Below are positions 33,301-64,000 of a stretch of DNA of 64,000 nucleotides, one piece after another. Position 1 is the first letter of the stretch; every line of letters starts with the position of its first letter. The position numbers were made by a program, and so were the translations under genes. The notes under the pieces are model-generated. The model saw only the letters and a list, made by a program, of their open reading frames with translations. It was not told the DNA's origin and did not search any database. This DNA comes from Raillietiella orientalis (lineage: Eukaryota): positions 558,001-622,000 of the forward strand of contig JAYWIR010000049.1 of NCBI GenBank assembly GCA_036172245.1. The letters are read 5' to 3'.

Positions 33301-33758
33301 GCTCCGAACTGGTCCAGCCTCAGAGAATGCCGCTGGGACGCCGCCTCACGTTGGCATTTCCATCGCGATCCTTCGTGGACGTCATCGACTGCACAACTTC
33401 CGGCCGTGCCCGGTCCGAGAGACCCACGCCGACCCAACGTCCTTCATCCCAGGTGCGAAACGGATGTTTGGGGGCACTCTACAGCGCCCCCACCCTCAAA
33501 CCACCCTGCCGGCAGAGTGAGGAAGCGCCCGCGACCTCAGCGGACACGGGATTTATCCTCGCCGGCGTCCAGGAAGCTGCATCCGTGCTGGCACGCACCG
33601 TCCTCCGTTCCAGAGACCTCTTCCTGGATGAGAGAGAGACCAAGAGGACCCTGGGATTTTCCGGTCCCTCTAACGCTAGCGCTCTTACCGTAGCCAGCGT
33701 TTCTCTTCAGTAGAAGAGGTGGAGCGAAGACTTCTTGACTTTGACCGCGCTTCTTCCA

Positions 33759-40900: not shown

Positions 40901-43410
40901 ACGCTTAGGCTTCCCGGCCTCATTATTGGCCTATCTGCGCTCCTGTTGGCGCGACGCGCTCATCAATGTTACTTTCAGCAAGCAGACCGTACACGGCGTG
41001 CCTGTGCGGCGTGGGATACGGCAGGGAGACAGGCTGAGCCCCTTGCTCTTCAGTACCTACTTTGAGTTGGTACTGAGAGCGTACAGGGAAACTCTGGCGC
41101 ACCTGCCGCACGACTGCGCCGGTACGCCTGCGGCTCCAGCATACGCGGACGACCTTCTGCTGCTGCTCCCTATGTCCACCCCGGTTTCGGCGGTCGAGGA
41201 GTTCTTCGACCTGCTGAGTCGGGGAACCGGACTGACGGTGAACAGGGCAAAGTCGTCCGTGATGCCAGTTAGTGCGGCGTGGGTAGAGCAGCAGGACTGG
41301 GTCCGTTTGGGGATCTCCACGGTACGGTACTTCAAGTACTTTGGTGTGCCATTGGGGGACTATTCCCCTGCGGAAGCGTGGTCCGGATGCCTCTAAAAGT
41401 AGAGACGGCGATCAGCCCGTTCCAAGGCGGCAGGTTTTTCCTGCCGGAACGGGCCGCGGTTTGGAACACGTTCGCGGCTCCTCTCCTCCGTTCCCTGCTT
41501 TTTGTTTGCCCCCCCACAGAGAGGATTAAAAAGCGGACGAAGAACCTCCTCCGTATCGCCCTTTGGGGCAACGGGAGGGCATGAGTCCGCCCGAAGGACT
41601 TGTGCGCTCCGCGTCGGGACGGCGGTCTCGGCCTACTGACGTTGGAACGGCTGGAGCTTCAGCTCCAGTTCCGTTTGATGGCCGTTGTGCCGGAGTTGTG
41701 ATGCACCTGCTGGTGTGTCCCTGCACGTCTCCTCCTCCAGCAAGCCACCGGAAAGACGGGACTCACGTCCTTTCTTGCACTCCGCTGCCGTGTCAACCGA
41801 TGTGGACTTCAGCTACGGAGGGTGGCTGCGCTGACACGGAGAAACCATGGATTGATCACATGTCGGCCCGCGAACGGTAGTGCCTGGTTGTAGGAAACTG
41901 TTCGCACGTGGGGACAGTGCTGCATGCAACGCTCCCAACAGGAACGACGGTTCCTGTTTGGGAGTTACAGAAGTTGAACGCTCCGTGAGATCCTGGAGGA
42001 TCCTAAGAAGAGAGCGTGGGCAGGAAGAACCCCCCTCGCTGCTGCGCTCGACTCCCTAATGGAAGATCAGGACAGCGATGTTGCGGCGAAGTGGGAGGTT
42101 ACAGTTACAATCTCTGGGAAGGAGAAGAAGATAGGAGAGTGGAAGACGGGTCAGCTAACTGACGCTGCCACCTCAAGTACGCCTCCCCATGGACTTCTGC
42201 GCTGGGGTGCGCTGCTCGATGTTCTCATTGAACGTCTAAACTGGCCCCGGTACTTATGAACACCTCCACCCTCCCCATGAAATGGCAGGAGTCGGCTCTC
42301 CTGTTGCAGCACTGGGGACTCCCCTGCAACGCCCGCTGACACCACGGGACCTGGGAAGCGGTGAACCTCAATTGTGTTAGGTGTGGGGAACGGGAATCCC
42401 TCCCCCACCTGCTTGTGGATTGTATTGCCCTTCGGCCCCTTTGGTTCCGCTTTGCCGCGGCCATCTGTATCCCCCGCAGCAACCCCAGGGACGCATTGAA
42501 AGCACTCTTCGTTGCCGACGTCCTTCGGCCAGCGACCTCGATAGCAGCCTTGTGCTGCCTTCGCGGGGTCGGCGCCGCATGCAGCAAGGCTACGGGAGGA
42601 CCTCGCGATAAGCGTGCCATCCAGCACGCCGCCGAATTTTTGAGGAGGGCGTTGCGATGGCCCCACCTGGATCCAGGAATGCAGAAAGAGCTTGCCGGCA
42701 TACTGCGAAGGATGCAACGGCCCCAGCAGCAACTGTAATCCCTTCCCGTACCCTCCCACTTTTTCTTTTCTTTTTGTTTAGTTTTTTGTTTTACCCCTTC
42801 CCCTGCTGCCGTGGTGGACCGTACCGGTCTGCGAACCGGTGACCCGGCAGGCTCTGTTTCTTCGTGCGTGGCTGGTGCAGTGGTCCAGCCACTGCACGTC
42901 TTTGGTAAAGTTTGTTTTTATAATAAACGCCCCGACGAAACCCGGGTGAAAATCGAAAGCTTTACCCAAATCTACTGCGAGCGCAAGGGCCCTGGGGGCG
43001 TGCGTTCCTTCTCGGTTTTCCCCTTGCTGGTCAGAGGGTAATACAGGATTCTCTTGACACAGCTGCGCCTCGCGTTGTTGCAGCTGCCACCAGGTGCTGG
43101 AGAGGAACAGGTTGGCTTCCATGCTTTGTCCAGGAACAGACCGGATATCCGGAATGTCCGGGACTGACCACGGATTCAGCCATCCGTCCCAGCCGCTTAG
43201 TCCAGAGTTTGGCATGCAACTTCGCATCCGCATTCACTGCTGTGATGGAACACCAGTTGCCTACGTTGCGTGTGTCTCCTTTCAGCAGGAGACGTACTCT
43301 GGCTGACCGGAACGAGTTGGGGACGTCCCCTCGTTCACGGATCAGCAGGCATAATTGGTGCACCAGGGGGACCAGCTCTGTCGCGAAACATTGATAAAAC
43401 TCCGTCTGGT
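37916..43410 (-). mobile_element. Older Tx1-clade LINE copy, interrupted by a younger antisense copy
   Basis: RT fragments EFYQ..LIRERGD..AVDLGKAFD (43410-42953) continue at 39997 with GIRRGDSLSPLLFSIYFE, RDGGLGL and CAGCGQRE; AATAAA plus hairpin at 37916-37946. Confidence 0.85.
39998..42952 (+). mobile_element. 5'-truncated L1/Tx1-clade LINE with 16-bp TSD; RT domain open (40041-41396), frameshifted C-terminus, zinc finger at ~42370
   Basis: KAPGEDG, NWRPIT, DLRKAFDSV, GIRQGDRLSPLLF, YADD, VNRAKS, FKYFGV and CVRCGERESLPHLLVDC; TSD tcgaaagctttaccca at 39982-39997 and 42953-42968. Confidence 0.95.
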
Positions 43411-43959
43411 GCTTTGAAGATGTTGAAGAGCAGAGGGCTTAAGCTGTGGTGGCTTAAGCTGCCCATCGCACCGGCATGCCGTACACGTGGCAGCCGCTGA
43501 AAATGCAGGAAGCTACTTTTGTCGGAATCTGATTTTGCCGAAGACATTGACGGGATTGATAACTGCGGGAGGTTCGTCGCCCGGTTGCGCCGAAGCGTCT
43601 ACTGGAAACGACTATTGGAACAAGAAAGCAGCGGCTGGACAGGACATGAGGTGAACTTTTGTGGACGTGACCCTGTCACTCACGTCCAAAAGGTCGAGGG
43701 GACACGTCGAGATGCCGGTGCACAGGTCAGAGTGGTCTGTCCCAGAAGGGAGGGGATAGACAAAAAGAAAACAAAACAAAAATACAACATATGTATACAT
43801 TACAACATATACGTATATTACAGGACCTCATATCCTGTCCTACTTTTCTTATTGTGAGTCTGTTCTGTTCTCCCTCTGTGTATATATACACTTACAATTG
43901 CCCTGTATATATATAAGGGAAAACTTTGTGTGCTTCAGAAAGGCATCACAGAAGGTTGC

Positions 43960-44770
43960 GGGACCACCACCAAAAATAAAAGCATATTTATTATATATAC
44001 TTATACATAGATTAACACATAGATTCATATATATACTGAAGATTATTGATATTTTATAATCTTAAAAAGTATACATGACTATTACGTATATCAGTATGTA
44101 TTCATACATGTAAATTTTAATGGAATGAATCCAAAAATATTGAATTATAAACGTACATACGTATTACATGCATATTATTAATATAATTTACATGTTTATG
44201 ATATATATTTGTATATAAATTGTTATATATTGTAAAAAATAATTGTCTATGTTTATCGTATATATAACTATGCATACCATAAATACATAGGAAATGAATG
44301 AATCTGTACATTTCGAATATATATTTATCAAGCGACCAATATTCCAGAAATAGAATTCGTCATGTAATCAGAAAGTCTCATTTATTTTTTGTTTTTATTT
44401 ATCCAATATTTTCATATTTATTTAACGTATATGCATTAAACATATAACTATATAATGAACGCACATATTTATTTTTATAACCTTCAAATTGAATGTAATA
44501 TATATCAACATTTATATCATTAATTATATCATTAATATGAATGTCAAAATAAATGTGCATAATATCTATATGTAAGCATATGTATTATTATTAATATGCA
44601 TAATAAGAAAGTATATTTATTTTTTTATAAACCTTACAGTACACTTTAACCATATATATATGTACAATATGCATTCATCTACATGTGATACGATCCTCAT
44701 GTAAATGTGCAGGATTTAAATGCAAATGTGCACGAGCATCATATAAACATTAAGACATATATTATTAATG
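43960..44770. repeat. AT-rich low-complexity island (degenerate AT/ATAC repeats)
   Basis: Very low GC against GC-rich flanks. Confidence 0.9.
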
Positions 44771-46499
44771 TTTCGGCAATTCGTTGGGCGCCTCCCAGAA
44801 TATTTGTGGAGATGCGATACGCTCCGACTGCACGGCAGCAGTGGGCTGCAGAAAAGTGGAACTTCGCGGCAAGGCAGTTCGCAGGCGCCAGCTTGGATCG
44901 CAAGGCGCCAGATCCAAGCGGACCTCGTAATGCGCGCAGCCAGGGTAACCAGGTGTATTCGAAAGTTTCAGGTGCTCTTCCGCCGTTTTCAGCATGCTTT
45001 CCTTCGTCGACACCATCTTGGTGACGGATGACGCTTTCCTGCCAGAGGACGATGGTCCATTCTCCGAACGACGCAATGAGGACTGCTTGCTGCAGCCCTG
45101 CTTGCTGAGGCTGCAGACCTCGTCCAACTCCTCCCGTCCGATGCTGGCCTCAGCCACGGAAGGCACGCGCGGGAAGACACCTAGGTGTTTATTCTCTCGT
45201 TGCAAGGAGCTGTTGGGTTCCTTGTCACCACTGCTGACTCTTCTACACACCAATAGAAGGGAGTTTCTGGCGCACTGGATCATTTCGCGCCTTCGGAGCC
45301 AGGTAATTCAGTCCCGAGAGGTGAAAATGATATAATGGAGAAGTGGGAACCCTGACAGAGGACCGAGTCTGGCAAAATCACTTCTGGGAGGGCGAGTGGT
45401 GCGCGCCGCAAGAGCCTCCGCCGGTCCGGTGCGCGCGTGCCTCCCGACAGGGAGGCGCCAGCTGCATGCGCAGGGACGGTTCTGCGCCCTGAAGTCTCAG
45501 GGTCGGTGTGGCGTCGGGCGCCGGGGCGTGCGGAGGGACTCGTGAAACGGGGGAGCTGCGCCCTCGGGTTTGCCGTTGGCCCTGCTTAGCGGATTCTGGC
45601 GTCCCGAGGCGCCGACCTCGAAGGAACCCGAGGTTTCCGCGCGCATCGCGGCCGCCTGGAGGAGTGCTGGCGCTCGACTCTCCCGGGGTGCTCGCCGTGC
45701 CCATCTGGTACTCGCGCGCAGAGTCTGTGCACATGCGCGCGCGCGCCTTGGTTTCATCCGTTGCGCGGCCACACGGCGACAGCATTCCTCCACCGCGCGG
45801 AAGAGCCCTCGCTGCGACTTTCGTTCTCTAAAGACCAAAAAAAAAAAAAAAAAAGGTCTTCCACCGGGAATCAGGAGCAGTCCCGTTCCCACCTCTCCAA
45901 ATTTCTTCGGCAAAGCATTCCCTCCAACGACTGGAACCACCCAGGTTTTCTCCTTTTCTTTCCCTCCGATTCCACAGCGAAAAGTCATGTTTCACTCTGG
46001 AAGATTTTTGGTATGCGATCCCGTCCTTTTGTATCATGTGCATTGAGTTCAGGAAAGGCCTTGAGGCTCTTTCCTCTGGAACCGAGGCGATCCGTCCGCC
46101 GATGTGGCTCCGTGCTTCGCCTCACTGCTGCTATCCCCGTGAGGACTCCCCACGGGCCGCTGATCGGCTTCCGCTCAGGAAAGGGCGCTCTGCAATTCCG
46201 AGAACTCCTCCAGCGACCTTTCCCGGACAGAATCCTGCCGTTTTCCAGAGCAGCCATCGTCAGGATTCTCCCTTGGTGACGCAAGCAGGTGAGATTACAG
46301 TCAGTCCAGAACCTGCTAGGGAGGAACGCGTCGCTTTCTCCGTCAGGAATGGGGGCGTGTTACAGTGTGAAACGCGAGCGGTGCACTCATCGTAGACACG
46401 GGGCCCGACTTGTCTTTTCCTTCCGCCCAGAAATGACAATATTCTACTGGATCCTGCAGCTGCCTTTTTCTTCTGGTTTTACTGCGGTGGATCTCTTGT

Positions 46500-49400
46500 G
46501 CCATCCGCCATCACCTGCAAATGGAAGTCATTTACGAGACGGAGAGTCCCTTCGCCTTGGCGGGCGCAGTTCATCAGCAGCGCTTTGTTGCCACCGCGAG
46601 CTTCACATTTGGTTCGGATCTTCGGCTGACCAAAGCCTTGACGACCGGAAGCTGGGCCGCACACTTCACTCCAGGGGCGCTTTGCAAGAGGTAACCGAAA
46701 TGTGGGTTTGGTTCAAAATCCCTAAAGCCCTTCAAAAGAAGTACATCTGTTGATTGTATATATTAATATACATATTTAGATATAGGTTAATATATAGTAT
46801 AAAGGTTATAAAAAAATGTACATGCATGTTGACATATCTATTTATAGATAAACGAATATGCAAATTCATTTAAACGTACATACTTATTATTGGTATAATT
46901 AACAATAAGTATTGATAGATTATCAACATATATGCATTAAATATTATAAAAATAGGTAAATGTTGTTATTATATAAATTTATATGCAGTAGATGTTTGTT
47001 AAGGGAATATATAAATGTCAAATTTTAAGAAATAAAAAGAATGGTGGCAATCAAAAATGGCGGGAAAAATCAAAAAGGCAAAGATAAGAAAACGCAAAAA
47101 AAGAAATTCGCTGTTTCGTTTTTTTTTCTTTCTGGCTTCCAGAACTCGACAAATGACACTTCCTTAGGAAATGACGAATGTCATTTTCGGGATTTTGCAC
47201 GTGAGTACGTATGTTTAGAAGTTGATGTTTACATATCCATTCCGAATACATTTTATATATATATACACTCTTCACCCTCTGTATATTGATAATATGTTAA
47301 TTATTATTATTTATCATATCAGTAAACATCCATCTTTGGATGTATGTATTAGTACATGCACATATTAATATTACTATATATAATAATAATGTATTTACTT
47401 TATCACATATGTGTTAATATATAATAAACACAGTATTAATTATGTTAATTATACGTATGTTAATAAATATTAATAAGTGTATATGTTCGATCAATATTAC
47501 AAGATGATTATATGCACATCAGTAAATATCTATAAATATGCATAGTAAAAGTAGAGTTGTATATTTATATATATATATCAATATGCACACATGTCATCAT
47601 ATATTTTAAGCTATATTTGTAATAAGCATATCATTACTAATGTATATTGATAAATGTATATTTTGGATTAATATTGCTATTAATTATATGCATATCAATA
47701 AATATTAATGAATGTACATGTTAGAAGTAAATTTGTGTATTAATCTCCATATACATACATACATCAATATGCATATATACTTATTTTCATGATCTTTACA
47801 ATGGATATTTCATATATCAATCTATACATAAACGTGCATACTAATATTTATAATAAGCATGTGTATTTATTTTTTATGTAGTCATTATTCGGGATTTCGA
47901 GCGGCACCGTTGAAATGTTTTTTATGCCATAGCAGTCGGTAAAAATTTCATCGAGCCGCGAGCGACAACCCTCATTTTGAAGGGGGAGATGACGGTGACG
48001 TCGAAGGGTATAACGATGACAGAAGAGAGGAGGAGACTTGAAGAACGGAAACCAGCAAAGTAAAGAATAGCAACGTCTCGGAGAGGAAGGTAAGCTTTCC
48101 ATAATACAATTCGTTCGAGGCTGCTTAGAGAGATGAAAAGCTGCTTCGGGGCTTCTGAGGGTATTCCGAATCGCACCGATGATGGAACCGATCGATGATT
48201 CCGATAGCTGCGAAAGGACTGTGCAAGGGAAACCATGGGCTCATGGAAACCTCGTGTAGTAGTCAGGCAGCGTCTGAAGACGTTGATGCGGAATTTGAAA
48301 CCACAGAACACACTCGCGATAAACCCGAGTCTGCGAAAAGAGTGAAAGAGGAGGAAGCAACTGACAGAAGAAGCATTTAGCGGCGTGTCTGCCCAGCAAC
48401 AACAAAAGCGGCTGATGGAAGGCCCAACACTCGCTGAAGCCGTGGGCATGCAGGGAAACGTGCTGGGGAACGTTCGTGAAGCGAAGGAACGAGTGAAATC
48501 CACGGGAGAGCTCTGGTCAGTTCTTGCTCATAGAGTGGATCCAAGATAGAGGGCAGGCCCTTTCTCCTGCTCGTTTTTTGCTAGCCCTTCCTTCAAAGAG
48601 ACCAAGTAGAGGACACCGTGCCCTTTATTCGCTGGCCGCGCCGGCGGCCGTGTGGCTGCGGAATCCGTGCAGGGCACCGAACGTCGCGGACTCGAGTCCC
48701 GCCCGGGGAAGGATCGACGCCGAGAGATGGACGCGGTGTGGGTTTCGAGTCCCACCCGCAGCATGACGCTGGTTGTGATCCCCCACGGATGCGGACTGGT
48801 TGCCTCCGTTGGTGGCTGGCGTGGGAAGTTTGACCCTCCGGGATCGTTCCACGGAGCCTTCGGTGTTTCCCCTCCAGTTATGCAAATGGAGTCGACCTCC
48901 CCAGAGGGGAGAAGAGGGAAGACCCTCCATTGCATATCAGTGAACATCTAGCGCGCTTCTTGCACTCTGGAGAGACAACCCCCCGGGATAGGTGGGTATC
49001 AACCAGCTCCATGGGAACGACTCTACTTTCCCAACTGGATGGAAACCCTGATTTCTGGAAGGACCCCGGAGGGTCAACTTCCTAATCCCGGCCACTCAAC
49101 CGGGGTATCCAGTTTTCGGCTGCGTCTATGGATGCCGCCCCTGACGCCACGCGAGGCCAACCAATGGTTAGGGTACCGGGGTCCTCAGATGAAATCATGA
49201 GGGAGGTCAAGGTTGGATTCTGCAGGCTGTGCCTCAGCAACGAAATGCTGCGGCCGCGATGCTCACTGGACCCGCAGCTTGGGACATCTGCAGGGCATGG
49301 AAATGGCGAAGACCTCGACCCCTTTTTCCCATGCAGTCCCTCACTTGACCCCGCCTTCGGAAAGGGGGGAGGATGGCGGCATAAGGAGGTGAGCGAACCC

Positions 49401-50385
49401 CGCGGGCGCAGCAGAGTCGGACCGAAGCGAACAGCACCAGAAGGGGAAGTGACCGAAGGAAAGTGGCACCCCTGCGAGAGATCTAAAAACAGATCGCTTT
49501 CGGTGCACGAATGCCGAATCATAATCTGGCGCCCCGTTCTAGTGGACATCCCTAGAGGACGCCGCGCGACGAGAATTACCTCACGTGACTTCAGATTTCT
49601 CGGTTCGCAGGTTTGTTTCCTGGACGCGGCATCGCCTCGTCGCCGTGGAGACTCAGTGCACACGTTCCGCCAGCACAGGTTCGTCTTCCATCTCTCCCTT
49701 CCTTCCCTTAGTGCCACTGGGTGGCTACCGAACCAGGTCCGTCAGGGCAGGCGCGCATCACGCCCTCCTCGGCGGCCAGAGACGTGAGGGGAGGGGAGGG
49801 GGTGAAAGACACGCCCAAGAGTGGTGCGCCGCCGCAGGGTTCCTTCTCCACCGCCGCTGCTCCGCATCCAGGAGACCATTCTTCCCCGCAGAGTTCGTAT
49901 CTTGGAACCGCGTCCTCCTCGATCTGCTCCATGTGCTCGCTCGGATGCAGCGGCTTAAGATGCGGATTCGCTGCCGTAGTGACCGTCGAACCGCGCGGAG
50001 CCTCTAGGAGGGACTTTCACCTGATACCGAGCGTTTCCGTGGTTTCCTCGGCTGGTGAGTCTGGAGAAGCTGCACGGCGGACGCTTCGCGTGGATGCGCA
50101 GCGATGGCAGGCCGGCGCCCGCGCAGGTTCTTCGAGAGACCCCGGGCGCTCTCCGCCTCGAGACGCAGAGAAGACTCCTCCGAGCTGAACTCCTGCAAGC
50201 CCCTGGGCCGACTCTTCCTCGACGAGGAGGAGGAAGGCAGCGAGACGATGCCGGGGTCCAGGTCGCAGATCTCCAGCGGCAGCTTTCTTTACAACTACAA
50301 GGACAGCAGCCGGCCCAGTACGCGCAAGGAGAGAGCAGGATCAGGATGTGGGATGCGATCCCGGAGAACGACTCGGAGTACGTGA
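46500..50385 (+). CDS. Putative unidentified spliced gene (candidate exons ~46500-46690, 49611-49678, 49712-49783, 49892-~49950, 50008-50054, 50127-50385)
   Basis: Successive polypyrimidine-AG acceptors and GT donors are phase-compatible; no recognisable domain and no clear start. Confidence 0.3.
46750..47880. repeat. AT-rich low-complexity island
   Basis: Very low GC; contains ttcgggatt MULE-end-like motifs near 47186 and 47888. Confidence 0.9.
48050..48500 (+). mobile_element. MULE transposase N-terminal (FLYWCH-like) remnant
   Basis: IATSRRG lead motif followed by a degenerate C..C..H pattern; in-frame stops. Confidence 0.35.
48634..48950 (+). mobile_element. Repeat family B copy (best-preserved head), abutting an inverted partial copy at 48960-49120
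   Basis: ggccgcg head; T-arm 1 at 48686-48702; T-arm 2 GTGGG-TTTCGAGT-CCCAC at 48738-48755. Confidence 0.7.
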
Positions 50386-53300
50386 GCGGGTCCTTGTCCG
50401 GAGAGAAGGAGGAATAGAAGTTCCTTCCTGCTCTCTCCTTCTCCTCTTCTGTTCCTCTTCCCCCTTCTCCTCTTTCCTTTCTTCCCTCCCTCCTCCTTCT
50501 CCTCCTCGCCATCCCACGGATCTCTGGACGTGGACATCACCTCCCGCCTTGGATCAGTTTCTCAAAGTGACCCGTTGCATCGTCAGAAGCTGAGCTCCCA
50601 TTCGGACTTCACCTCTGAATATCAGGACACACACGGCGACAGGAAGTGCCCGCCTCGCTCGGAGGAGCTAGCTCGAGCTCAGCCCGATAGCAGCAACGTC
50701 ACAGAGTTGGAAAGATGCGGAGGGCAGGCGATGTTGTCGAAATGGGATGGCACCGCTCCGGATGGGAGATCGCGTTGGGCACAACGCAGCGGTGGCAGAG
50801 ACGGGAGCTCCGGCTCGCAGCTCTGCCTTGCTCCCAGCTGGAAAAAACAAACAAGAAACAGATGAGGCAGGTAACTCGACTCTCGTCTTGTTGAGCACTC
50901 AGCCGGTGGAAATAGTAGTGCTGGTCCCGACACGGATCCACGCTTTTCGATTCATGCGCTGGGCTTTCTTGAGTTCGCCGAGGCAGCCAGCTGGGAATCG
51001 ACCGGAAATCGCCGACCTAAAACACAGGAGAAACAAACGAGGGAGCTGGACCACGGACGGATCCTTCCGGTGACATTTGTGCATCGAGAACGCGGCATGC
51101 GGGTCCTGGCAGCACTTCCTCAGAGACGCATACTGTCCGAAAGGCGCGGCACCTCACGTCCGAACGACGTGACCCGTTCAGCTTCCTAAGAGCTTCCCGC
51201 TTCGTCATCGCGATTCATACAGGCAGGGGAATCGGAAAGTACCATTCTCACGAGTAGAGCCAGCCCGGGGAACAGCCAGCATCCGCAGCCCCCCCGAATC
51301 CGTACCGTAAAGTGGACTGCGGACTGATTCCCGACGGGATTTGTATTCAGGGAAGTTGAAGAAGCGCTGCGAACGTTGCTGTGCTGCGTCAGCGCAGCGG
51401 GAAGAAATCTGATCTTTCTGCTTTGCTTCCCTGCGTTATTGGAAGCAGTACTGGAAACTACTCCTGAATTCGAAGTAGGCCACCCTTCATCAAGGTCACC
51501 GTTGCTCGCTCAGTTCCAGTCCGTCCCGACAAAAAAGCTGTCTGCAAAGGATTAAAACTTATGACGAACCGTAGAGCCTGCGCCAGGGATCTTCACGGAT
51601 GGCTTTCTGCGATTCTGTTCGAACCTTTCAAGGATACCCAATTTTCACATCGCAAGGCTGCTCCAAAGTCGTCTCCACGCTGACCGCCGTGGGCATAATG
51701 CATCGCCTGTCAAAGCAGCAGTGGCACGAATGAATCCAGGCCTGCTTTTGCAGTAGAAGCTCACTTACTTTACGTTCGTTTTTTCAATTCATTCTCACGT
51801 GCACCCATCATGTCAGGAGACGCTTCTCTTTGTTTGCTGATGCGATGTTACACGTCTCAGGCAGCAGGATGAAGTGAAACGGTTCCCAGAAAACTAATTT
51901 TATCGATGTGCTGATTCAAGTCCGCAAATTTTGCATTTTAATATGTGAACGGACCGAGCGAAGAGCCTGGAGAAAGAAGATTATGCCACAGACACTTCGA
52001 AGGTAGTGGGCAAGACAATCTGTAATGGCACTATAAGGCCCCACGAGGAAAAAAAATAAAAACAGATGTGGGGACCAGTGCATTTGAGAAATCTCATACC
52101 ACACAATGAGGTGAAGGTCCACGGGGTTCCATGCTGCACGAAATTCGCGTTTTATGAACATCAGCTTCAGCAAGAGTATGCATCAGTAAGTCCCACGCCC
52201 CCTTTTTGCATGTGGATGCACTCGTCCGACCTTCCTCGGAAGCCAAGTCTCGAGGAACACTGACCCTTATAAATTACCGTCGTGAAGTTTCAAGTGGAGT
52301 AAAAACAACAGCAAAAAAAAATGCAACCCGCATCCGGAAAAGGAGCTCGAACGCTTGCTCCACACGCCCGCAGCCCATTTGAATAAGCGAAGTAAGCGAT
52401 TTGAGGAGTGTTTTTGGTTCCATGGCCACAAACATGTGTGAAACGTGTGACTATTGTGTAACTTTTTCTTTCTTTCATGAAAATGGGGCTTGAAACTTGG
52501 ATATGCGAGATTTGGACAAAAGTTTACGCTGCAGGCAACCATCGAAGAACTGACAGTCGGTAAGTCACAGGCGTGCTGCCTCGAGGAAACAAAAAGTCAA
52601 AGATCTATGGAGAGTTCAGATGAGAAAACCAGAAATAGAATCCAAACTTGGGGGATACTCTGGATATGCAGGATAATGCTGTAGATGAAGAGAATTAGGA
52701 GAAGAAGGCCGAATATGAAAGCATTGCTTGCCGAGCACTGAGAGGAGCAGAGAACTGACAAGGATAAAGAGGCGCACCTGCCACTGCAATCCATAATATG
52801 GCATAAGCCTGGGCATTTCCTACGGCGTCTAAACCCTGCTTTACCAGCAGTCTCGAATTCATGGGTAAAGAAAGTCTCACAGAAAGGGCTTTCATGCTAA
52901 TAACTTCAACACTATTGTCTTCATCAAGCCTCATAAGGTCGAAATCAAGCCATTCCAAATGCTCTTGCATGTTTCAAATGGCAAGAAAATCAATTCCCTG
53001 CAGTATTTTCAATTTGCATCAAGGTCAGGACCAAAAGACCAAGGATCATCTTTTCCATGCTGGGTGGATTAAGGAGGCACTACAACTCACATTTAGATAA
53101 GATACTGTTCTTCTATGATGAACTGGAACTCGACTGCAAAACTAATGGAGGTACAGCCCTAAATTTAGGATTCAGAAGTATGAGATAAATTTCCCCGGAA
53201 CTTCCTAATACTTTTGGGGTCTATGCTTTTCCCAACAGAAAAGACAAACTGTCAAGTTGCCCGTGAGGAGCACCAGACTACACGGCACAGATGTTGCAAC

Positions 53301-56300
53301 CAATGCTGTCACGACACCAATGCAGATAGCAAGATCACCAAACTTTCCTGATGATCCCAAAGCTCTTCTTCATTGCCAGGTATTGCCGACCAACGTCGGC
53401 CACAAGTGAACATGACTTTTTTTTTTTTTTTTTGGCAATGGCTCTCGAAAACTTTAGGCAGTGAGGGGTGTGTTTGTATTCTCGCTAGTGACCCTGATGA
53501 CAGATAAGGATGAATATCTGGAAGCTTGTTACAGTGTAATCTAGCACTCAGAATGGGTAGGATTTTCGGTACAAGAAAGCTGGAATGAACACAGACAAGC
53601 ACCTGTTGGAATGGGCAGGTTTTCTGGAAACGACCAAAGCACCATCTTTGTCAGTCTGCCGAGAGTAACCAAATGAGAATGACCTAAACTCTACTGGTTT
53701 CCCGCTATACTCCTCTTCTTTAGCGGGATTTTCATCACATGTTACGTGGAACAAATCTAAACTCTGTACCTCCCCATATCGACTGAAGAAACCTGCACCA
53801 AAGCACGATACCTGTAAATCAAAATTAAAGCTTTCAAACTCCAAAGTCAAACTCTAAATGGTGTGTTCCCTGGCGAGAATCGCCTGAGGGAGTGTTGCCG
53901 AAAACTCTGAGGGGAACTTTTTGAGGTTTGATAGACCCAAACGCCTATGCAGAATTCTGCCTTTTGGATTCATTTGGATGCAACTCCCAAACCAACCTCC
54001 GCCAATCGGCGGTTGCTGACATCCACTAGAAAAATGCTTGCCACTAGAAAAAGCAAAACATTCTGCAGCCGTTTCCCCGGGACAGTTTAAACGCTCGTTT
54101 TTTCCCGTTGCGAAATTCTTCGGAGTAGGGACTTTGTTTCATACTTTTCAACCACTTCCTTGGTGGCAACATCCAGAATACGGTGCATCTCTTCAGACGA
54201 ACCACCTGCCTCCGGACTTTCGGGCTCGCACCACGTCCAAAAGTGGTATGGAGCACGCGCGTGCAGTTACCACTTAGAAGGCCCACCCGCGGCCACGCAT
54301 TTCCGGCACTCCTTCACGGACTTGGGATCCATTTGTATTTTCCATAGGATCACGAAGATTCTTCACCTTTTGACGAATCCGTGGGGGAAGAGACTTTTCT
54401 TCATCGTGTCGGCTTTCTTGCTCGATGTTTCGCGCAGCTTGCAGCTGCTCTGGAAATACTGCTGCTGCGTGCGACCAAGCAGAATGGCGGAAGGGATGTG
54501 CACGCCTCCCTCATGAAGACTTCCGGACGCATACGTCAATTGCTCCCTGTCAGGTTCGGAAGAAAAAGGCAAACAGAATAGACACAGGTGACCACTTGAA
54601 CAACTCGCGCTCACGAGTCCTTCAGATTCTCGTTGCTGATTCGGATCTCGCCATTTCACGACCTCCTTAGGAACGTACCAGCGAGCGACTTCCGCCTTCA
54701 TCGGAAGGAATCATCCTTTACAAGGCACGAAGAAAAACTTAAACTATTGAAAATTAATGCGGACACACACAGATGGAGCAAGAGCAATTAACCTTCATGG
54801 TCATCTCCTAATGTTTTGAGGTACTCTGGTTCCCCGTGAAAGTGTCAAGTTGCTCGTAATGGCGTCCTCAATAAAATTCCAGTTTTAGAGAGATGAATGC
54901 CGCTCTGTCTCAATAACAAAACGCAGCTGAAGCAGCGTTCATTTGAAGAAAAAAAAAAAAAGCCTTCAAGTATATCAGGCTTAGATTCCATCCACGAATC
55001 CATGGAGACAATCTTATCCACTTCATCGGGAAAGATTGACTGTCATTTCTTCTGATCCCTCAGCTCGCAGCTTCGTCCTTGTGATGTTTCTCGTATTTCT
55101 TCCTGTTGGAACATCCGGGATTCGTTTGGCGCTCTCGATCGCTAAATTATGGTCAGTGCAAAAAAAAAGCAGTTACATAAGCCTCCTGCTTTCCATCTTC
55201 CATGAAAAGAGAAGACGAGCTGTCACGAATTTGGCACTCCAGTGGACTGACCAGCTAACCGCTGATCCGCAAGCGAGCCGCCATGGTTTGCTGGCATTCT
55301 TTCCCGGGGGATCGGAAAATGAAGTCTCATTTGTGCTTTTCGAAGGGGAGCACAACGGCCCACATCATCTTGTTGCATCCGAGTATTTGCGCCATGGCTT
55401 GATGCAGACGCGTCCTTGCCCTGTTCTGTCCGTTAGACCGTAATAACAGTGTCAGTAATACGTCCTCTGTGTACTGCCACCCAAATAAGTGTCGATCACA
55501 AGCCTTGCGGATCGGTCTTTTGTATTTTCTCAAGGAAAAGGCCTTGGCTGTATCCGCTTTGCCGAATCAAAAATCCTTTCGGCGAGGAGTTCAGGAACAA
55601 AAAAGAAAGAATTTCTTTCTCTGATCACCTGAGGACCACTGTGGCACGTTGCAACCACCTTGACAAGCACGAGTAAGTGTTTTTGAGATCTCACTGAAGC
55701 TGTAAATAGAAGACAGATCGGTTCTGACATGGAAATTATTCTTTCAAGCTGCTCATCCATCCGACTGAGTGAGGAAAAAGTTTCCCTGTCATACGAAGAC
55801 GGACATTTTCAGACATTTTCAATGCCATGCCGTGTGACACTCTTCAAGCAGGCATCTTCCGAAACTCACTCCTTCAGCGGAAGGAAAAGAAAAGGACTTG
55901 GAATTCTCACGGTTACTCCCCTCACGAAATGAAATCTTTGGTTCCTTCGCTGCCTCAGTTATGCGCTCCAGCAGTCCGCGGAGCATCCATTGAGCTAAGA
56001 CTACTTGTAGGAATCGAGAGCCCCATTTGTTCTTACAGCATTTGAAACAGGGCATCCCAGATCGAACGATCCCAGAGCAGCGTATATGGAATTTTTCTTT
56101 TTTAAAAAAAAAAAAATACTTATTACTTGTCGGACAGTGCCTTAGTGGATGGGCAGCTTTCTGTCTCATGCAGTACAGAAAGCACCTCCCGTGCTCCAGT
56201 GACAGTCAGGGAGCAGCACAGTTCCTTCGGGAAGAGCGTTGGCCAGTTTGGGGAACCTTGGACTTCATGCCGGCAAGCCGAGAGGCACCCGAAGAGGAAA

Positions 56301-56599
56301 GCGTTTTGCGTTGCTACGTTACCCATGAAGGGAATTCAGCGGAGGGGAGATTTGCTGTTTGAGGCTGCTCATCAAAGTGCAGCTGCATGGTGCCGGCGCT
56401 GCAGTTTGCTGCCAGGATGTCCTGCTGGTCAGCCAACCCATACGGAACGAGAGGGTTCGAAAACGGTAGACGCACGCTCATTCCGGAGGTCCTTCAGGTA
56501 GAAACAAAGCTTCCGTGTAGTGGAAACTGGCACACTTCTTGCCTTCGACCAAATGACCCCGGCTCCCGAATAGGACTTGTCTATTTATGCAATCCCCCT

Positions 56600-59237
56600 C
56601 TCTATCAAACGCAGGTTTCAAAATCCTTTTGGATCCTTTTCTGTTTTCACTCTCTTCCTTCTAGTTTTTCTTTTTTTTTTTCGAATTTTTTTTGGGGCGG
56701 GATGGGGGGGGGGGCTCTAGGAGTGCCGAAGAACCGTCCGCCTCCTTACGAGGAGCTCACAAAGTTTTTATCCCAAGGGTGTGTGTATAACTCTTCAGGT
56801 TAAAAAGAGTGAACTCCTATGAATCCAGGAAGGCCCTTGAAGAAGGAGTCCGTTCCTCTTGAGCTTGGTAGGGGAACTCCGAAGGGAATCCTCCCTGGTT
56901 GTCTCCGGAGGGACCCCCGGAAGGGAGCAGTGCTCTTCTGCACACTCTGGAGAGGAAGTATCAACCAGCTCCATGGAATACAATGGTGGCCCTCCCCCTT
57001 GAGGGGAGATGCGGCTTTATTTTCACAGCCGGAGATCGCATCTCGAGGAGCTCCTTGGTTCCTGGAAAGACCCCTGGAGGGTCGACTACCGATCCGGGGC
57101 TGTCAACGGAGATATCGGGTTTCCCACTTCCGCCAGTGCCGCACTCGAATGTAGTCCAACCAGCGTCATCTTGTGGGAGGAACTCGAACTAATGACGCAC
57201 CCATTTCTCTGCGTCGATGCTTCTCCCGGTGGAGTTCCAACCAGCGACGCTTCCGGCAGAGAGACAGACTGAGCCCCTTGCTCTTCAGCATCTACTTCGA
57301 GTTAGTGCTGAGAGCATATAGGGAGACTCTGGTAACCCTGCCGAGCTCGTGTCCCGGCACGCCTGCCGTGCGGCCTATGTCGCACTGTCGGCCTATGCAG
57401 GCAGTCTTCTGCTGCTGCTCCCCGGGTCCACCCCGCCTTCTGCTCTCTAGGGTTTCTTCGAGTTGCTACGCCGCAGGACGAGCCTGGAGGTGAACAGAGC
57501 GAAGTCGTCCATCGTTCATGTCGGCTCGGCGTGGGCTGGGCGGCCGGACTGGATCCGCTTGGGGATCCCCACGGGCAAGTGCTTCAAGGACCTTGGGTCC
57601 CGTTGGGGGACTTCTGCGCAGCAGAAGCTTAGTCTGGCCGTCTCCAAAGGGCATCGTTGGCGATCGTCCCGTTCCACGAAGGCAAGTTTTACTTGCAGGA
57701 ACGGGCCGCGGAGTGGAACGCGTTTGCGGATCCCCTCCTCCGCCCCTTGCTTTTTGTTTGCACCGCCACTCACATCATACGAAAGCGAGCAGCGGGCCTC
57801 CTAAGGACAGCCCTGTGGGGCACAAGGAGGCCCCGCGTGCGATTGAAAGACTTGTGCGCTTTACTCAGGGACGGTGGACTTGGCCTCCTCACTTTGGAGC
57901 GTATGGAGCTTCAGCTCCGATTCTGGACTCTCGCCCTTGCGGCCGAACTTTGGGATACGCCTTGGTGCGTCCCAGCACGCCTCTTGGCCCAATGAGCCAC
58001 AGAATTCGGCGAACATTCTGTTTCTGTCGACGCGCAACCTCAGGCGAACGCACTGCGGCCCTCAGCTGCGTCGCATGGCCGTTGTGGTTCGGGAGAACAC
58101 CTGGATCTCCTGCCTCCCCCAGAACTGCTCTGCATGGCTGCGGGAGTCAGTTTCTACTTGGGAAAAGATCCACGTCCCGAGCGGTACAAAAGGCACTCTC
58201 ACTGGACGCCGCAGGAGATCTTGCAATCCCCAGGCAAGCTGCCGTGGGCCTTGATTACCCCCCTTGCCCCTGTGCTGGTGAACGCTAGGGACAGTGACGA
58301 ACTGGGACAGTGGAAAGTGTCCTGTGTGATTGGAGTCAGGAACAAACCGATAAAGGCGTGAACATCTCGACAGTTAGAGGACGCTGCTACTCCGACCGTC
58401 CCTCCCAATGGACTTACGCTGGGGCGAGCTACTCTCATTACCTCCGGAGAAGGTGAAGTGGCCCACAGCGTGTTGGAAGTGTGGCTCCCTCCCCGTGAAG
58501 TGGCAAGAGGTGGCGTTGCTGGTGATGCATTGGGGACTCCAGTGCAAAACACACCTCACTCACTGGACTCGTGGAAGTGTGGATGCCCTGTATGACCGGT
58601 GCGGGGAGAAAGAGACTTTCCCGCACTTTCTCGTGGAATGCATCGCCCTCCGTCCCCTTTGGAGTCGTCTCGGGACGATCCTGAACATTGGAGGCGGCCC
58701 CAGAGACATTTTCAGGCGCCTCTTCTCGCTTGCCGCCCTGCCTCCGGTCGTGTCTGCAGCAGTGCTTTGCTGCATTCGTGGAATCGTGGTGGATGGAACG
58801 CCTCCAGAAGAGGTCGGAATGGAAGAGATGCCATCCATTGGACGCGCATCTTTGTTAGGACCGTGTCCCGGTGGCCCCACCTGGGCGCAGAAAGGACGCA
58901 GCTTGTTAGGATCCTGAGCAAGATCTAGAGGACCGATCCGCGCTCACCGTGATCCCTTCCCCTCCCTCCCCTCCCCTATAGATTTCTCCCCTCCCCACGT
59001 CTGACTTTTTGTTTCTTTTTTGTTTAATTTATTCCTACCCCCGCACGTTGGATGGATCTCGCTGGTCGCTACATTGGCAACCAGCAAGTTGTTGTAACGT
59101 GGTGAGCCCTTGAGTTCACCACGAGAAAATGTGTCTGTATTTTTATTTTTATAAATAAATGCCCCGGCATATCCGGGTGAAAACGACGCGTGCTGCCGCG
59201 TGCGGAGGCAGCAGCCGCACGGCCTCCATCTCGGGCC
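56600..59237 (-). mobile_element. Longest repeat family B copy, split in its head by a LINE (57251-59183)
   Basis: Head at 59237-59184; body at 57250-56700; A-rich tract (T-run on +) at ~56665-56693; 6-bp duplication cgacgc. Confidence 0.7.
57251..59183 (+). mobile_element. 5'-truncated Tx1-clade LINE
   Basis: RQRDRLSPLLFSIYFE, ERAAEWN, RDGGLGL and CGEKETFPHFLVEC; ends ataaatgccccggcatatccgggtgaaaa. Confidence 0.9.
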
Positions 59238-59249
59238 AAGTGCAACCTC

Positions 59250-60960
59250 ATGTAGGTGCATGATTCTTAGCACAACAGCCCTCAGCAGCGAACTCGTTTG
59301 AAGTGGCCGAAGATGCGAGTTTGCGCGTAAATAAATAAGGAAACGCTGATACATGGTCAGCCAACAGAAGCGCTGGTTCCTAAAAAGTATATCTAGGGAG
59401 AACTGCCAGATTGCAGCCATTGTCCGTACGCAAGAGGCGCAAGTCACTGGAATTCATCTTCACTTGCCGTTCGTTTCTTCCGAGGCAGTTCCGTTATTCC
59501 CTCCGAGTTTTGGAGGCTCCGCCAGTTGTTCCTTTGGTCAGCTTGGACATTTCTGCGGACTGATGCTGCGAGTGGGCACTTTCAGCAAGCCCAGTCGGTT
59601 TTCTTATTTTGCGCGATGCCAGATGATGCGATTGTCCGCTCTGGAGAGCTCCATCCGGAAATTTTTTTCCTGATGAGCTGAAAGAGACGGTGGTGCCTGC
59701 GGTTCAGTGTACAGCGTGACGGGAGATCCACCAGTGACGTCCTCGCCTCACCCAGGGACGTCTGCTTCCTTTCCACCGCTTATGCCGAGCGTTCAGCTCT
59801 TAGCCAGCTGCAGCGATAGCGAGCGGTCTGATGTCATCCATCGACTGCCATGTACGGTTACACGGCCATTCTTCCGCTGGCGCTCTGAAGTTCCCCGTAG
59901 ATCGCAGGCTACCAACCGCGGCCGGAGCTCGCCCTTGCCCTTCCGTGCGGTCCGTACGACAGGATGAGCGCAGCGTGCCGCTGTTTCCGTGCAAAGGGTG
60001 ACCGTGGCGTTCGCCCAGCTTTCGGTTCGGCCCGTCACCGTGTGCCTGCGGAGCGACGTGCGCTGCTGGGGGACGCTGTGGCTGCGTCCCGAGCAGGGAA
60101 GAATTATGCGTTACAATAGGAAAGAACCGCTCCCACGGTCGGCACGACGCGAAGCGACGGAGCTGTCGCAAAGGGTTGTGGCTCTACTGGAGGACGGGCT
60201 GCGACGAGAGGGAGGGAAAAAGTCACCACCGGACGTGTCGCCAAGGTCCCTCACTCCTCCTGACTGTGTTTTCTTTTTTCTCCCAAAAAGCCAGTAGCGA
60301 TCTTACGGAGAGACCGTTGCTATTGGCGTACAATGATTATCAAATGGTTGTGCCGGGGCATTTATTTCACAGAATAATGAAATTACATTTTTGTGATGGA
60401 ACCCTGGGTTCTACGTGCAAGCAGTCTGCCCGAAGAGCGGTACACAGACCGGCAAGGTCCGCTTGGACAGCGTGGGGGAAGGGGGAAACAATAACAACAA
60501 AATAAACAAACAAAACAGGGATAGAGGAAGGGATCCCAGTACGCTGCCAAGCGTCCTCTGTGTCCATTCTTGGTGGACTCCGTCGTCATCTGAGAGCTCT
60601 GGTGCCCAAACCGAACTCGCCGCAGCCCCGGATGGAGGCACTTCATTCCCGTGTTGCATGGACACCGAAAGACGACCGCCGAGCGTGGCGTGAGGACCAG
60701 CCAGTGTCCATGAGGAGTGACCCTCGGAGTGACCGCTTGGATAGGCAGCATCAGGAGGCAGCATTGACGGCAGCATCAGGAGATGCGAGGAGCTGGAACC
60801 AACACAACACCATGATGAAGGCATCAGCTTCATTGGACAGCCGTCTCCGCTTCGGACGTCCCGTTCTTCCATCCCCGAGTAGGAGTTGGTCGGCAGCTCT
60901 TGCAAGCAGGCGGTACAGCGCTGTCTTCGCCATTCTTCCGAAGGCAAACAACTGGGTGCA
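59250..60960 (-). mobile_element. Degenerate Harbinger-like transposase, interrupted by a LINE 3' fragment at ~60340-60570
   Basis: Colinear broken motifs RMAKTALYRL..GRP..LSNE..IMVLCW, VACDLRG, LAESAH (GDSAY-like) and a C-terminal VLHN-like region. Confidence 0.45.
60340..60570 (-). mobile_element. Tx1-clade LINE 3' UTR fragment
   Basis: aataaatgccccggcac terminus and the conserved 3' UTR GC block. Confidence 0.7.
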
Positions 60961-61244
60961 ACGCCAAAGAATTCAACATTTCTTTCTTCTCGTTGCCGCC
61001 GCCCTTCCGAAGGGGAGAAACGGTGCGAGGGTTGCCGCAGGCGACGATTCTGCTTCGTGGCGCTTCCTCGGCCTGCGGAGCATCCGCCCAGCTGCCCGCT
61101 GCGCTCAGCGAGGGCGTCGCTCGCAACGGGTGGTCGTTCGGTCGATGACGGTGCACTTGGAAGGAAGTCGGGTGGGTCGGCAGTGTTCGGTTCCTTCTTG
61201 CTGCCCTGGTTTGGCACCGACCGTTGCCTTGGCCCTGCCACGTC

Positions 61245-62550
61245 ACAAACATACAAAAAGGAACTTGCTGACAACCGGCGCGCAGGCCGGCGAGGTTCGT
61301 CTCGGCAGCAGAGGGGAAGGAGGGCAAACAAAAAGGAAAATAAAAAAAAAGCATAAATATGTAAAAAAAAAAAAATTGGGAGGGTTTCAGGAAGGGATCG
61401 CTGTGTGCTGGAGGGTATCCTCTGCATCCTTGCAAGGATTCCAGCAAGTTCCTACTCCACCATTCCCAGATGGGCCATTTTGACGCTATCCTCATGAAGA
61501 GGACAGCAAAATAGATGGAGTCCCTGTCGTTCTGGCTTCCACTGACGTTCCTGCTCCAGGCAGCCACGATCCCGCGTAGGCAGCAAAGTGCTGCTAGGGA
61601 TGCGGCTGGCGTGAGGGCGTCGCGCAGGAAGAGGTGCTTTGCAACATCTCTGGAGTTGCCGCTAGGGGTTCCAAGGGTCGCGGCAAAGCATCCCCAAAGA
61701 AATCGGAGGGCAACACAGTCCACTAGGAGGTGCGGGAGGGATTCGCGCTTCCCGCACCTGGCGCAGTCCGGATCCATCTTCCCCTCCTGGTCCAGTGATT
61801 CCTGAGGGCAAGGAAATCCCCAGTGCACCAGCATCAACGCCGACTCCTGCCAGTTTAATAGGAAGGTGTGTCTGTCCAGCAGCACTGGAATCCGCTGCAA
61901 ATCTTTTTCCGGAACAGCTCTTCTCAGCAAAGAAGTCCTCAGGATGGAGCACTCGGAATCGCAGCGTTCGTAAGCTGACCCGTCGTCCACTCACGCAGTC
62001 CTCTTCTCCTGTCGGAGATTTCCCATCCCAGGAAACCTTCCATCTAACCACAAGGCTGCTGCCCATGTATTCCCTCAGGGAGGCAGTGCTGCGGCAAGGG
62101 AGATTCTTCCTGCCTACGCATCCTTCTCGGGATGTTCAAGGATCTCCAGGAGCGAGCAGTTGTTATGGAAACAGTACAGCGTCTGCTGTGCTTGTTCTGG
62201 GCATCGCTCTTGCTTCATCGTCCACATGCGGACGGTTTCCTGTAGCCAGGCACTACCGTTTTCTCGGGGCGGAAGATCTAGCTGTTGGTTCTCGTCAGGG
62301 TTGCCTCTAGCCGGTGCCGCAGTCTGCAGTAGGATAGGCTGCATAGACGGCGTGTAAGGAAGGGCGCGAGTCCCATGCTGTCGATGGCCTGCTGGGAGCG
62401 GCGGTTCGCACCAGGTGGTACTCCAGAGTTTTGCCACGAGGGCGAGGATCCGAAATTGAAGCTGCTGCAGCTCCCTTTGTTCCAGCATCAGGAGGCCGAG
62501 ACTGCCGTCCCGGAGCGAAGCACACAAGTCCTTGAGGCTGATGCGGGACC
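61245..62550 (-). mobile_element. Tx1-clade LINE C-terminal fragment
   Basis: LKDLCASLRDGSLGL and DPDCARCGKRESLPHLLVDC; close match to 34050-34560. Confidence 0.9.
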
Positions 62551-64000
62551 TCGGAGCGGGGCTCCTCCGTCTCCTTTCTTCCTTGCCTCTTTTTCTTCCT
62601 TTTTTCTTTGCGGAGGGAGGAGGAGGAAGGGAGGGAGGAAAGATAGAGATGGCACCTTTGCTCGGTATCTTCCCTGTGGCAACAGCAGACCCTACCCCAG
62701 TAACACGGGACTTCTTGAGGCGCCGGGCTGCCTGCAGCTCCGAGTCCACTGTAGAGATACTCCAGGTCGGCTTTGGAACGACTCGTTCCCCTGGAAACCC
62801 CCCAGCGCTAAAGAGAGCAACGAGACGATCTTAGCGTGGAAGGAGGGCAAGCAGGAACCCTCCCGCATCTCCGACGGGATGCAGAGACCTGGAACATCCC
62901 ACTGCCCTTGCTGGGTGGATTCCTCCGCTCACGAGGAGGAGTCCCCTCTCCTGACTTCGCAGGGGCTGGCATCCCTCCCTGGACTCCCTGGACTTAGTCC
63001 TAGTCCTCCTCGCTGGATGCTCGGGGCACCTGCGAAGGGATCGCCTGCGGCTGCTACTCGGTCTTCTCTCCCGAGACTGTTCCTGCCGGGGCGGCGGCCT
63101 CGTCCTCCTGCGCCCGCGACTTCCCGCTCGACGGCGGCGCCTCCTTCCTGTGGTCGAAGCCCCGTGATCACGCAATCCCGTGCGCCAGATAAGATAACGG
63201 GACGGAGGCCAACGGATTGACTCGGGATCGTTCATCTAACTGCTGTTCCAGCGCACTTGCCAGGGCGCGCGCGTCCTCCTAGTGCGTTCCTGCTGTTTCG
63301 ACTGTACTGAACGGCCTCCGTCCTTCCGTTTCTTCTTCCTCCTCTGCCGCCCTTCCCCCTGAAATCCTCAGCTCTTTGGACACCCTGTTCTCTCCGGCCA
63401 TCGTTGTTGGCGGTAGCGCCTCGTCTCCTCCCTGTTATCGCCAAGGGTGGCTCCAGATAAAAGCGCGGTTGGAATTCCAAACCTGCGCAGAGGCACTTCG
63501 CCTGGAGTACTCTACCCGAGATAAGGAAGAGATTTATAGAGGCAGCTCGTCCCAGGATCTGCCCCTTCCCCCTTTTCGAAAGTGCGATCGGTCCCGGAAG
63601 CCCGACCCTGCCAAGGAGGATGCGCCGGAACGTGGAAGATCAATGACTGCGCAGCGCCGCAGCCGCCCCCGCCTGCCATTCTTCCGCCGCGATCAGTTGG
63701 GCAGATTTCGCCTCAGGTTAGTGACGCGCACCCGGTTTCCTTGACGACCAAACGGGGCGGGGTGGAGTTGTGGGAAAAGAAAAGCGGGGGAAGAAGTCTT
63801 CCGTCCCAGGAGCCGGGAGCTTGCTGCCGCGTGTTTCGTCTGCGTCGTGGCCTTCGATCCGGCCTGAGCCTCTGCACGGAGGAGGCATCGCCATTCCTCT
63901 CGGGAAGCAGCTCCGCATCTCCTTCGCTAGGAGCACGCAGGCGCACACGCCGACCTCGCCCCAGCACCTTTCAGCATGGCGTGGCAACCCCGACCTGATC

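Follow-up and report, generated by a model that had tools for sequence, protein, structure and literature searches.

A possible relaxed insertion hot spot for an L1/Tx1-type LINE within an unrelated repeat of Raillietiella orientalis

Introduction

What brings several copies of one family of long interspersed nuclear element (LINE) into the same unrelated repeat? The question is raised by a 64,000-nucleotide (nt) stretch of Raillietiella orientalis DNA (assembly GCA_036172245.1, contig JAYWIR010000049.1, positions 558,001 to 622,000, forward strand; hereafter the window), in which three copies of a LINE of the L1/Tx1 type lie inside an interspersed repeat that we call repeat B, two of them at the same site. 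A preliminary description, made by a model from the letters of the sequence, had suggested that the LINE has a relaxed preference for tRNA-like or RNA polymerase III (Pol III)-promoter DNA. We propose instead, as an explanation with about an even chance of being correct, a relaxed, non-exclusive hot spot for this LINE at a CG-rich, partly palindromic site in B.

Results

Three LINE copies are inserted in repeat B

Copies of B were located with a profile built from B copies, with positions running to 348. LINE copies were traced by copy-to-copy matches and by a profile made from the 3' part of the LINE, which added further ends. The coordinates of both families are collected in Table 1.

The clearest insertion is that of the 57-kb LINE copy, which the preliminary description had placed inside B with CGACGC on both flanks and with B resuming on both sides; on this the sequence and the B profile agree. 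The duplication is perfect over 6 bp (57245-57250 and 59184-59189; GCGTCG in the sense of B) and lies directly before the first T-arm-like motif of B, with the LINE and B on opposite strands. The LINE ends in AATAAATGCCCCGGCATATCCGGGTGAAAA and begins inside a reverse transcriptase (RT) motif (..RQRDRLSPLLFSIYF..), and its full length matches other LINE copies. When the LINE and one CGACGC are excised, B reads ..GGCAGCACGCGTCGCTGGTTGGAACTCC.., colinear with the uninterrupted stretch at 33751-33929 (..GGCATCACGCGTCGCAGGTTCGAATCTCC..).

The second insertion, at the start of the window, has the minus-strand terminus ..CCGGGTGATAAA followed by CGACAGGTTCGAATCC, with B entered at profile position 62. 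This junction falls at the 3' edge of the 57-kb duplication, within ~2 nt, and here the LINE has the same orientation as B, so that the earlier placement of the LINE end at 381 at the same B site in the opposite relative orientation is borne out. The primer strands end in ..GCGTCG at 57 kb and in ..CTGTCG at 381, so the two nicks were on opposite strands and within ~2 nt.

The third LINE, at 34 kb, splits one B copy and, as had been described, does so further into B: profile positions 159-176 occur in both halves, ~100 nt past the first site, and the LINE and B are on opposite strands. The candidate target-site duplication, GGTGCGGTATTGG (33917-33929) and GGTGTGGCACTGG (34650-34662), is alike at 10 of 13 positions and perhaps comprises only the last 7 bp. 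Over their aligned 3' 800 nt the three LINEs within B are only 51-62% identical among themselves, and since they are so strongly diverged they represent independent events.

Junctions in B exceed its share of the window

Seven LINE 3' junctions are readable in the window, the 61-kb copy having no recognisable end. Three of these lie in B, one in a LINE and three in unclassified DNA; the preliminary description had the three in B right and set them against a total of six termini. The probability of at least three of seven junctions falling in B is 8e-4 when measured against the share of B in the window and 1.4e-3 against non-LINE DNA, and three of the five B copies carry a LINE. For the shared site, the probability that any pair of three random sites would fall within 1-2 nt of each other in 350-480 nt is 0.02-0.04.

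Two of the three junctions in unclassified DNA have some LINE-like sequence beyond them. That of LINE A is followed by a hairpin resembling a LINE terminus, and that of fragment E by a possible RT fragment (E 0.05).

Structure of repeat B

The five B copies are 59-66% identical and occupy 1873 of the 64,000 bases (2.9%). The length of B is ~0.35-0.5 kb, with similarity fading near 56826 and 35153 on the 3' side. The head contains the CG-rich stretch ..CACGCGTCGCAGGTTCGAATCC.., with a second similar unit ~55 nt further on, and in both units a T-arm-like hairpin stands between GCGTC and GACGC. Immediately 5' of the first of these hairpins is the CG-rich, partly palindromic CACGCGTCG. The hexamer GCGTCG is concentrated in B, which holds 10 of its 57 occurrences in the window on both strands.

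B showed no similarity to the 3' end of the LINE, whether by BLAST or by profile. A motif inside B, CCGG(C/T)TGTG(A/C)AAAT (56970-57030 and homologous places in the other copies), does resemble the LINE-terminal CCGGGTGAAAA; it is not the end of B, because B extends past it, though it may be a relic of a LINE-like tail. At 48950-49163 an inverted partial B (profile 146-336) adjoins the copy at 48625-48969, the pair forming a long palindrome.

Repeat B and tRNA

ARAGORN found no tRNA genes in the 64-kb window. Rfam gave no matches at gathering score in the window and no tRNA at E values up to 10 in 48500-48950 and 33650-33950. When the ARAGORN thresholds were relaxed to 80%, a cloverleaf was called in the head of three B copies, and in that of the consensus, at the homologous position; the 21-kb copy was also called, apparently at an offset. 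The same setting returned 102 calls from 360 shuffled controls.

Of the internal Pol III promoter motifs, one resembling box B (GGTTCGANNCC, at most one mismatch) has 6 of its 20 window matches in B and is present in four of the five copies; it is first met 8-10 nt 3' of the insertions at 57 kb and 381. Box A was found in none of the five copies at up to one mismatch and in one of the five at up to two, where the background is 1.95 per kb per strand. The sequence GGTTCGAATCC at up to two mismatches showed no window-wide enrichment (26 found, 22.95 expected).

B may be a decayed tRNA-related short interspersed nuclear element (SINE). The narrower identification of B as a tRNA-derived SINE (SINE2) with a recognisable head is ruled against by the ARAGORN and Rfam nulls at normal thresholds. 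The suggested preference of the LINE for tRNA-like or Pol III-promoter DNA thus finds no support in the ARAGORN, Rfam and box A nulls, and the calls at the 80% thresholds are matched by shuffled sequence.

Identity of the LINE

The longest copy in the window has an open reading frame (ORF) of 507 residues (39873-41396) that matches Pfam RVT_1 with an E value of 1.9e-22. The closest solved relative of the LINE RT is human LINE-1 ORF2p (E 5e-41), with R2 reaching only 5e-18. Among 64 database relatives the top identity is only ~29%, the best named one being an unclassified fish protein (27% identity), followed by plant L1-like proteins. An Exo_endo_phos domain (PF03372) is present in all 18 best of these 64 relatives and zf-RVT in many of them; in the 57-kb copy itself, the C-terminal frame at 58378-58917 gives a weak zf-RVT match (PF13966, E 0.0071, 17.4 bits, cut-off 27.5). 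In a protein atlas only generic RT clusters came up. The RT similarities support assignment of the LINE to the L1 superfamily (L1/Tx1 group) of non-LTR (long terminal repeat) retrotransposons. Its endonuclease would presumably be of the apurinic/apyrimidinic endonuclease (APE) type, as in relatives at ~29% identity.

All LINE copies in the window are 5'-truncated. The 3' end consists of an A/T-rich stretch, AATAAA, a CCGG-type hairpin of 4-5 bp and GTGAAAA, and this terminus pattern occurs four times in the window where 0.01 would be expected. The 5-pair stem of the hairpin is conserved, with compensatory changes in none of its pairs.

LINE copies and a LINE-in-LINE insertion

Over the aligned 3' 800 nt the LINE copies are 51-64% identical pairwise, apart from the 34-kb and 61-kb copies, which reach 79%. 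Copy C is certainly a LINE-in-LINE insertion, one that the preliminary description had not mentioned: it interrupts the element formed by A and D, and a 16-bp duplication, TCGAAAGCTTTACCCA, stands without a mismatch on its two sides (39982-39997 and 42953-42968). Since the copies are strongly diverged and yet the duplication around C is intact, their divergence stems more from old, separate lineages than from the age of each insertion. A target-site duplication of the interrupted A/D element was sought and not identified.

Fragment E lies ~170 nt past the 5' end of D, and the intervening 43410-43552 is weakly similar to an RT motif (E 0.05). The 3' flank of LINE A (37881-37916) opens with ACCTCATTCAGGCAACCGGCGCAACTGGGTAAGAAA, the hairpin part of which is close to the terminus of fragment E, CGGCGCAACCGGGCGACGAA; this flank may be the end of another LINE copy.

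Table 1. Copies of repeat B and of the LINE in the window, with profile positions where available
Feature	Positions	Strand	Remarks
Repeat B	142-380	-	profile 62-323, starts at CGACAGGTTCGAATCC (profile match 142-378)
Repeat B without LINE	21178-21490	-	GCGTCG stretch deleted
Repeat B, left half	33751-33929	+	profile 1-176 (match to 33925); GCGTCG site intact
Repeat B, right half	34650-34856	+	profile 159-348; likeness to 57-kb copy extends to ~35153
Repeat B without LINE	48625-48969	+	site reads AACGTCG
Repeat B, body and both T-arm-like motifs	56917-57250	-	profile 55-348 (match 57252-56917); likeness to 34-kb copy extends to ~56826
Repeat B, head, cut off by 57-kb LINE	59184-59245	-	profile 1-62
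LINE at 381, 5'-truncated	381-1057	-	3' end at 381 adjoins B; 5' end uncertain, ~1019-1114
LINE at 34 kb, 5'-truncated	33930-34649	-	splits one B copy
LINE A	37917-39997	-	3' part of element interrupted by copy C; 3' end at 37917
LINE copy C (RT to 3' end)	39998-42952	+	inserted in A/D element
LINE fragment D (RT region)	42953-43405	-	5' part of same element as A
LINE 3' fragment E, short	43573-43790	-	profile only; diverged terminus ..CCGGGCGACGAA
LINE at 57 kb, 5'-truncated: part of RT, C-terminal Cys/His region, 3' untranslated region, AATAAA-hairpin-GTGAAAA terminus	57251-59183	+	
LINE 3' fragment F, short	60337-60572	-	profile only; diverged terminus AATAAATGCCCCGGCACAACCATTTGATAA
LINE at 61 kb	61217-62552	-	no recognisable 3' terminus; 89.6% identical to 34-kb LINE over 568 nt

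Window context and outside data

The window has ~56% G+C and no CpG depletion (observed/expected 0.94). An A/T-rich island at 44000-48000 has 36-45% G+C, compared with 55-60% elsewhere in the window, and a 55-bp tandem direct repeat with 93% identity lies at 35631-35741. Trypsin-like frames at 8057-9131 on the minus strand comprise two ORFs (Pfam Trypsin, E 7.6e-15 and 6e-10), for which a word-seeded search returned no relatives; segments of 8070-8259 recur at 26828-27032, 28649-28760 and 29914-30027 with 75-80% identity, perhaps as a local gene family. Saposin-like frames at 17391-20099, also on the minus strand (SapB_1 and SapB_2, E 1e-6 to 2e-7), are probably exons of a multi-saposin gene.

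The only public sequencing run found (X1) contains 0.10 of the sampled words. At 80% likeness it matched 40000-59999 with 544 contigs, of which 343 are under 90% alike. Three of the pieces listed show no differences from the window, which indicates that the same or a near-identical organism is present in the run. Many short contigs of 80-95% likeness fall on parts of the LINE, and ten fall at 48696 in B, so that both families are multicopy. In the same run 47337-48003 has a high summed contig depth (139.8), suggesting another high-copy repeat.

The LINE terminus pattern was also found at four loci in metagenome contigs, at one in prokaryote genome contigs (a Bacteroidota metagenome-assembled genome) and at none in viral contigs. 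The metagenome matches are due to chance, because they have no other likeness to the window, and the Bacteroidota match is a chance one as well.

Discussion

The nesting, the duplications, the independence of the events and the common site are established by the sequence and the profiles. We infer that the excess of LINEs in B is a true bias, and that its source is a local sequence or DNA structure favoured by the LINE endonuclease rather than tRNA-likeness or Pol III factors. In the course of events that we propose, diverged lineages of one L1/Tx1-superfamily LINE inserted independently, and 5'-truncated, into the unrelated interspersed repeat B. Integration would have been by ordinary target-primed reverse transcription, with which the intact 3' ends, the truncated 5' ends and the duplications of 6, 7-13 and 16 bp are consistent. 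The stretch of B containing CACGCGTCG would have been nicked twice, once on each strand, and the third copy would have entered ~100 nt downstream. Since GCGTCG is concentrated in B, an endonuclease favouring such a motif would hit B beyond its share of the length without recognising B itself.

A number of observations weigh against such a hot spot. The sample amounts to three events in one window, and the event at 381 is documented at one junction only, because the B head is undetected past the 5' end of that LINE: the profile gave no hit, and local alignments did not improve on those of shuffles (p 0.28-0.98). This absence itself carries little weight, because a head of 60 nt at ~65% identity would escape detection. 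No nick-site motif is common to the seven junctions, at which the LINE is followed by CG, CC, AC, TC, CC, CG and TC/AT, and two B copies have CGTCG at the site and were not entered there (33751-33929 and 48625-48969). The endonuclease domain is absent from every LINE copy in the window, tblastn with full-length relatives giving matches only from RT residue ~349. Furthermore, a LINE is certainly the target at one junction and may be at two others, so that a general nesting of transposable elements within one another is at work; if the target is taken to be B and LINE DNA only, of which B makes up 15%, the probability of at least three of seven junctions in B becomes 0.07. Strict target specificity, that is one site in one orientation, is not the pattern seen here, since only three of the seven junctions are in B, they fall at profile positions 55-62 and 159-176, and both strands were used at the shared site.

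Several of these points fit an account without any targeting, with LINEs kept where they are harmless in older repeats, three of them in B by chance and the shared site a coincidence. We consider this a serious alternative, though less probable than the hot spot. It is helped by the probability of 0.07, by the LINE-in-LINE nesting in the same window, by the lack of a common nick motif at the seven sites, by the use of both orientations and of two different positions in B, and by the fact that the pattern was picked after the fact from one window. However, the coincidence at the shared site is improbable on its own and, multiplied by 0.07, gives ~2e-3. The excess in B relative to the whole window (8e-4) and the finding that three of the five B copies were hit, by three diverged LINE lineages, also argue against chance nesting.

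Guidance of the LINE to tRNA-like or Pol III-promoter DNA, for instance by TFIIIC on the B box or by a T-arm-like hairpin, is unlikely; it would bring the LINE into the head of B in either orientation and also into tRNA genes. Such guidance would fit the concentration of box-B-like motifs in B (6 of the 20 window matches), the position of two insertions just 5' of the first of these motifs, and the use of both orientations, which suits protein tethering better than sequence specificity. The cloverleaf called in three copies and the consensus at the 80% thresholds, at a homologous head position, points the same way, and there are L1-clade precedents on Pol III genes in the TRE5 and TRE3 elements of Dictyostelium, as a passage of PMC5911963 relates. 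Against this, no tRNA was called at normal thresholds and shuffled sequence gave many calls at the relaxed setting, box A is lacking from all five B copies at up to one mismatch, the third insertion in B is ~100 nt from the first two, and there is no box-B-like motif near the other four junctions. The LINEs known to target Pol III genes are also described in that passage as landing outside the gene at set distances (PMC5911963). With no tRNA genes, the window offers none for comparison. A more specific form of guidance, in which the LINE would recognise a decayed tRNA-related SINE in either orientation, by its T-arm-like hairpin or by a Pol III factor on its box-B-like motif, seems to us improbable to the same degree. 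Entry would then have been within the head of the SINE, where the variable loop of a tRNA would meet the T stem. If true, such structure- or factor-guided entry into a Pol III-type repeat itself would set the LINE apart from Tx1 elements with sequence specificity and from the TRE elements, whose landing sites are outside tRNA genes.

L1-mediated chimeras are known in which an RT jumps from one template to another. The junction at 381 has such a layout, with the LINE and B on the same strand, an exact LINE 3' end joined to a 5'-shortened B, and no B head detected on the far side of the LINE. The RT would have copied a B transcript starting at its 3' end, switched at the foot of the T-arm-like hairpin to a LINE RNA, again at the 3' end, and one fused cDNA would have been inserted. 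Such an origin is very improbable, since it would leave unexplained the LINEs at 57251-59183 and 33930-34649, which have B on both sides with duplications, since the junction coincides with the proven nick site of the 57-kb copy, and since the missing head would be undetectable anyway.

If the bias at the CG-rich site is real, this LINE is another of the L1/Tx1 type whose landing preference is directed to a repeat, in a little-studied, CpG-rich genome where neither the LINE nor the trypsin-like gene has close database relatives. It would be a relaxed case, using both strands of a palindromic CG-rich site, and could illustrate the passage from the nick preference of an endonuclease to target specificity. 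Without a true bias, the locus is an instance of ordinary transposon nesting. Either way, its clean LINE ends and target-site duplications are useful for annotation of the family.

No paper listed by full-text literature searches describes a LINE whose target is the head of a tRNA-related SINE. The targets named in the preliminary description agree with passages of PMC4494074 and PMC3706591, where Keno is assigned to U2 snRNA and Mutsu to 5S rRNA, except that the target of Dewa is given there as the spacer of tRNA-Leu rather than a tRNA array. Like these three elements, the LINE described here is of the L1/Tx1 type and is associated with what may be Pol III-type or small-RNA-related sequence. 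Unlike them, as far as those passages describe one defined site for each, it has two sites and both orientations, four of its seven junctions are elsewhere, and B is no recognisable RNA gene.

The TRE5, TRE3 and NLTR elements are described in a passage of PMC5911963 as L1-clade elements with APE, RT and zinc-finger domains that integrate up- or downstream of tRNA genes, with targeting governed by the B box and TFIIIC/TFIIIB and not by the sequence of the nick site, and they are the model behind the earlier suggestion of a Pol III preference. TRE5-A in particular is presented in another of the papers as guided by host proteins, in contrast to the elements treated there. For the TRE type in Dictyostelium the distances given from tRNA genes are ~40-54 bp on the upstream side and 40-150 bp on the downstream side (PMC5911963), whereas the insertions described here are inside B, 8-10 nt from a box-B-like motif, with no true tRNA gene present.

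With ordinary nested insertions of the L1 type the present copies share the intact 3' end, the truncated 5' end, the variable duplications and the nesting of LINE in LINE. They differ from them in the excess within a repeat whose share of the window is 3%, and in the re-use of one site on both strands. The closest likeness appears to be with the repeat-preferring LINEs of the Tx1 clade. According to a passage of PMC4494074, many Tx1-clade elements have target preferences: Xenopus Tx1 (Tx1L) is found in the Tx1D transposon, Kibi and Koshi in microsatellites, and Keno in U2 genes. Preferences for certain transposon families, at certain positions in them, are among these, and the same source places crocodilian Tx1-Mar in Mariner-N4_AMi, Tx1-9_AMi ~300 bp into Harbinger, and Tx1-8_Crp and Tx1-4_AMi in LTR elements (PMC4494074). 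As in those cases, so far as they are described there, an L1-superfamily LINE, here with a presumed APE-type endonuclease, is found repeatedly in one unrelated repeat at a recurrent position; the difference is that here only three of seven junctions are involved, at two positions and in both orientations at the shared site, and that B is not a recognisable DNA transposon. The insertions in B are thus plausibly a loose, both-strand form of a known theme, that of Tx1-type LINEs preferring particular repeats.

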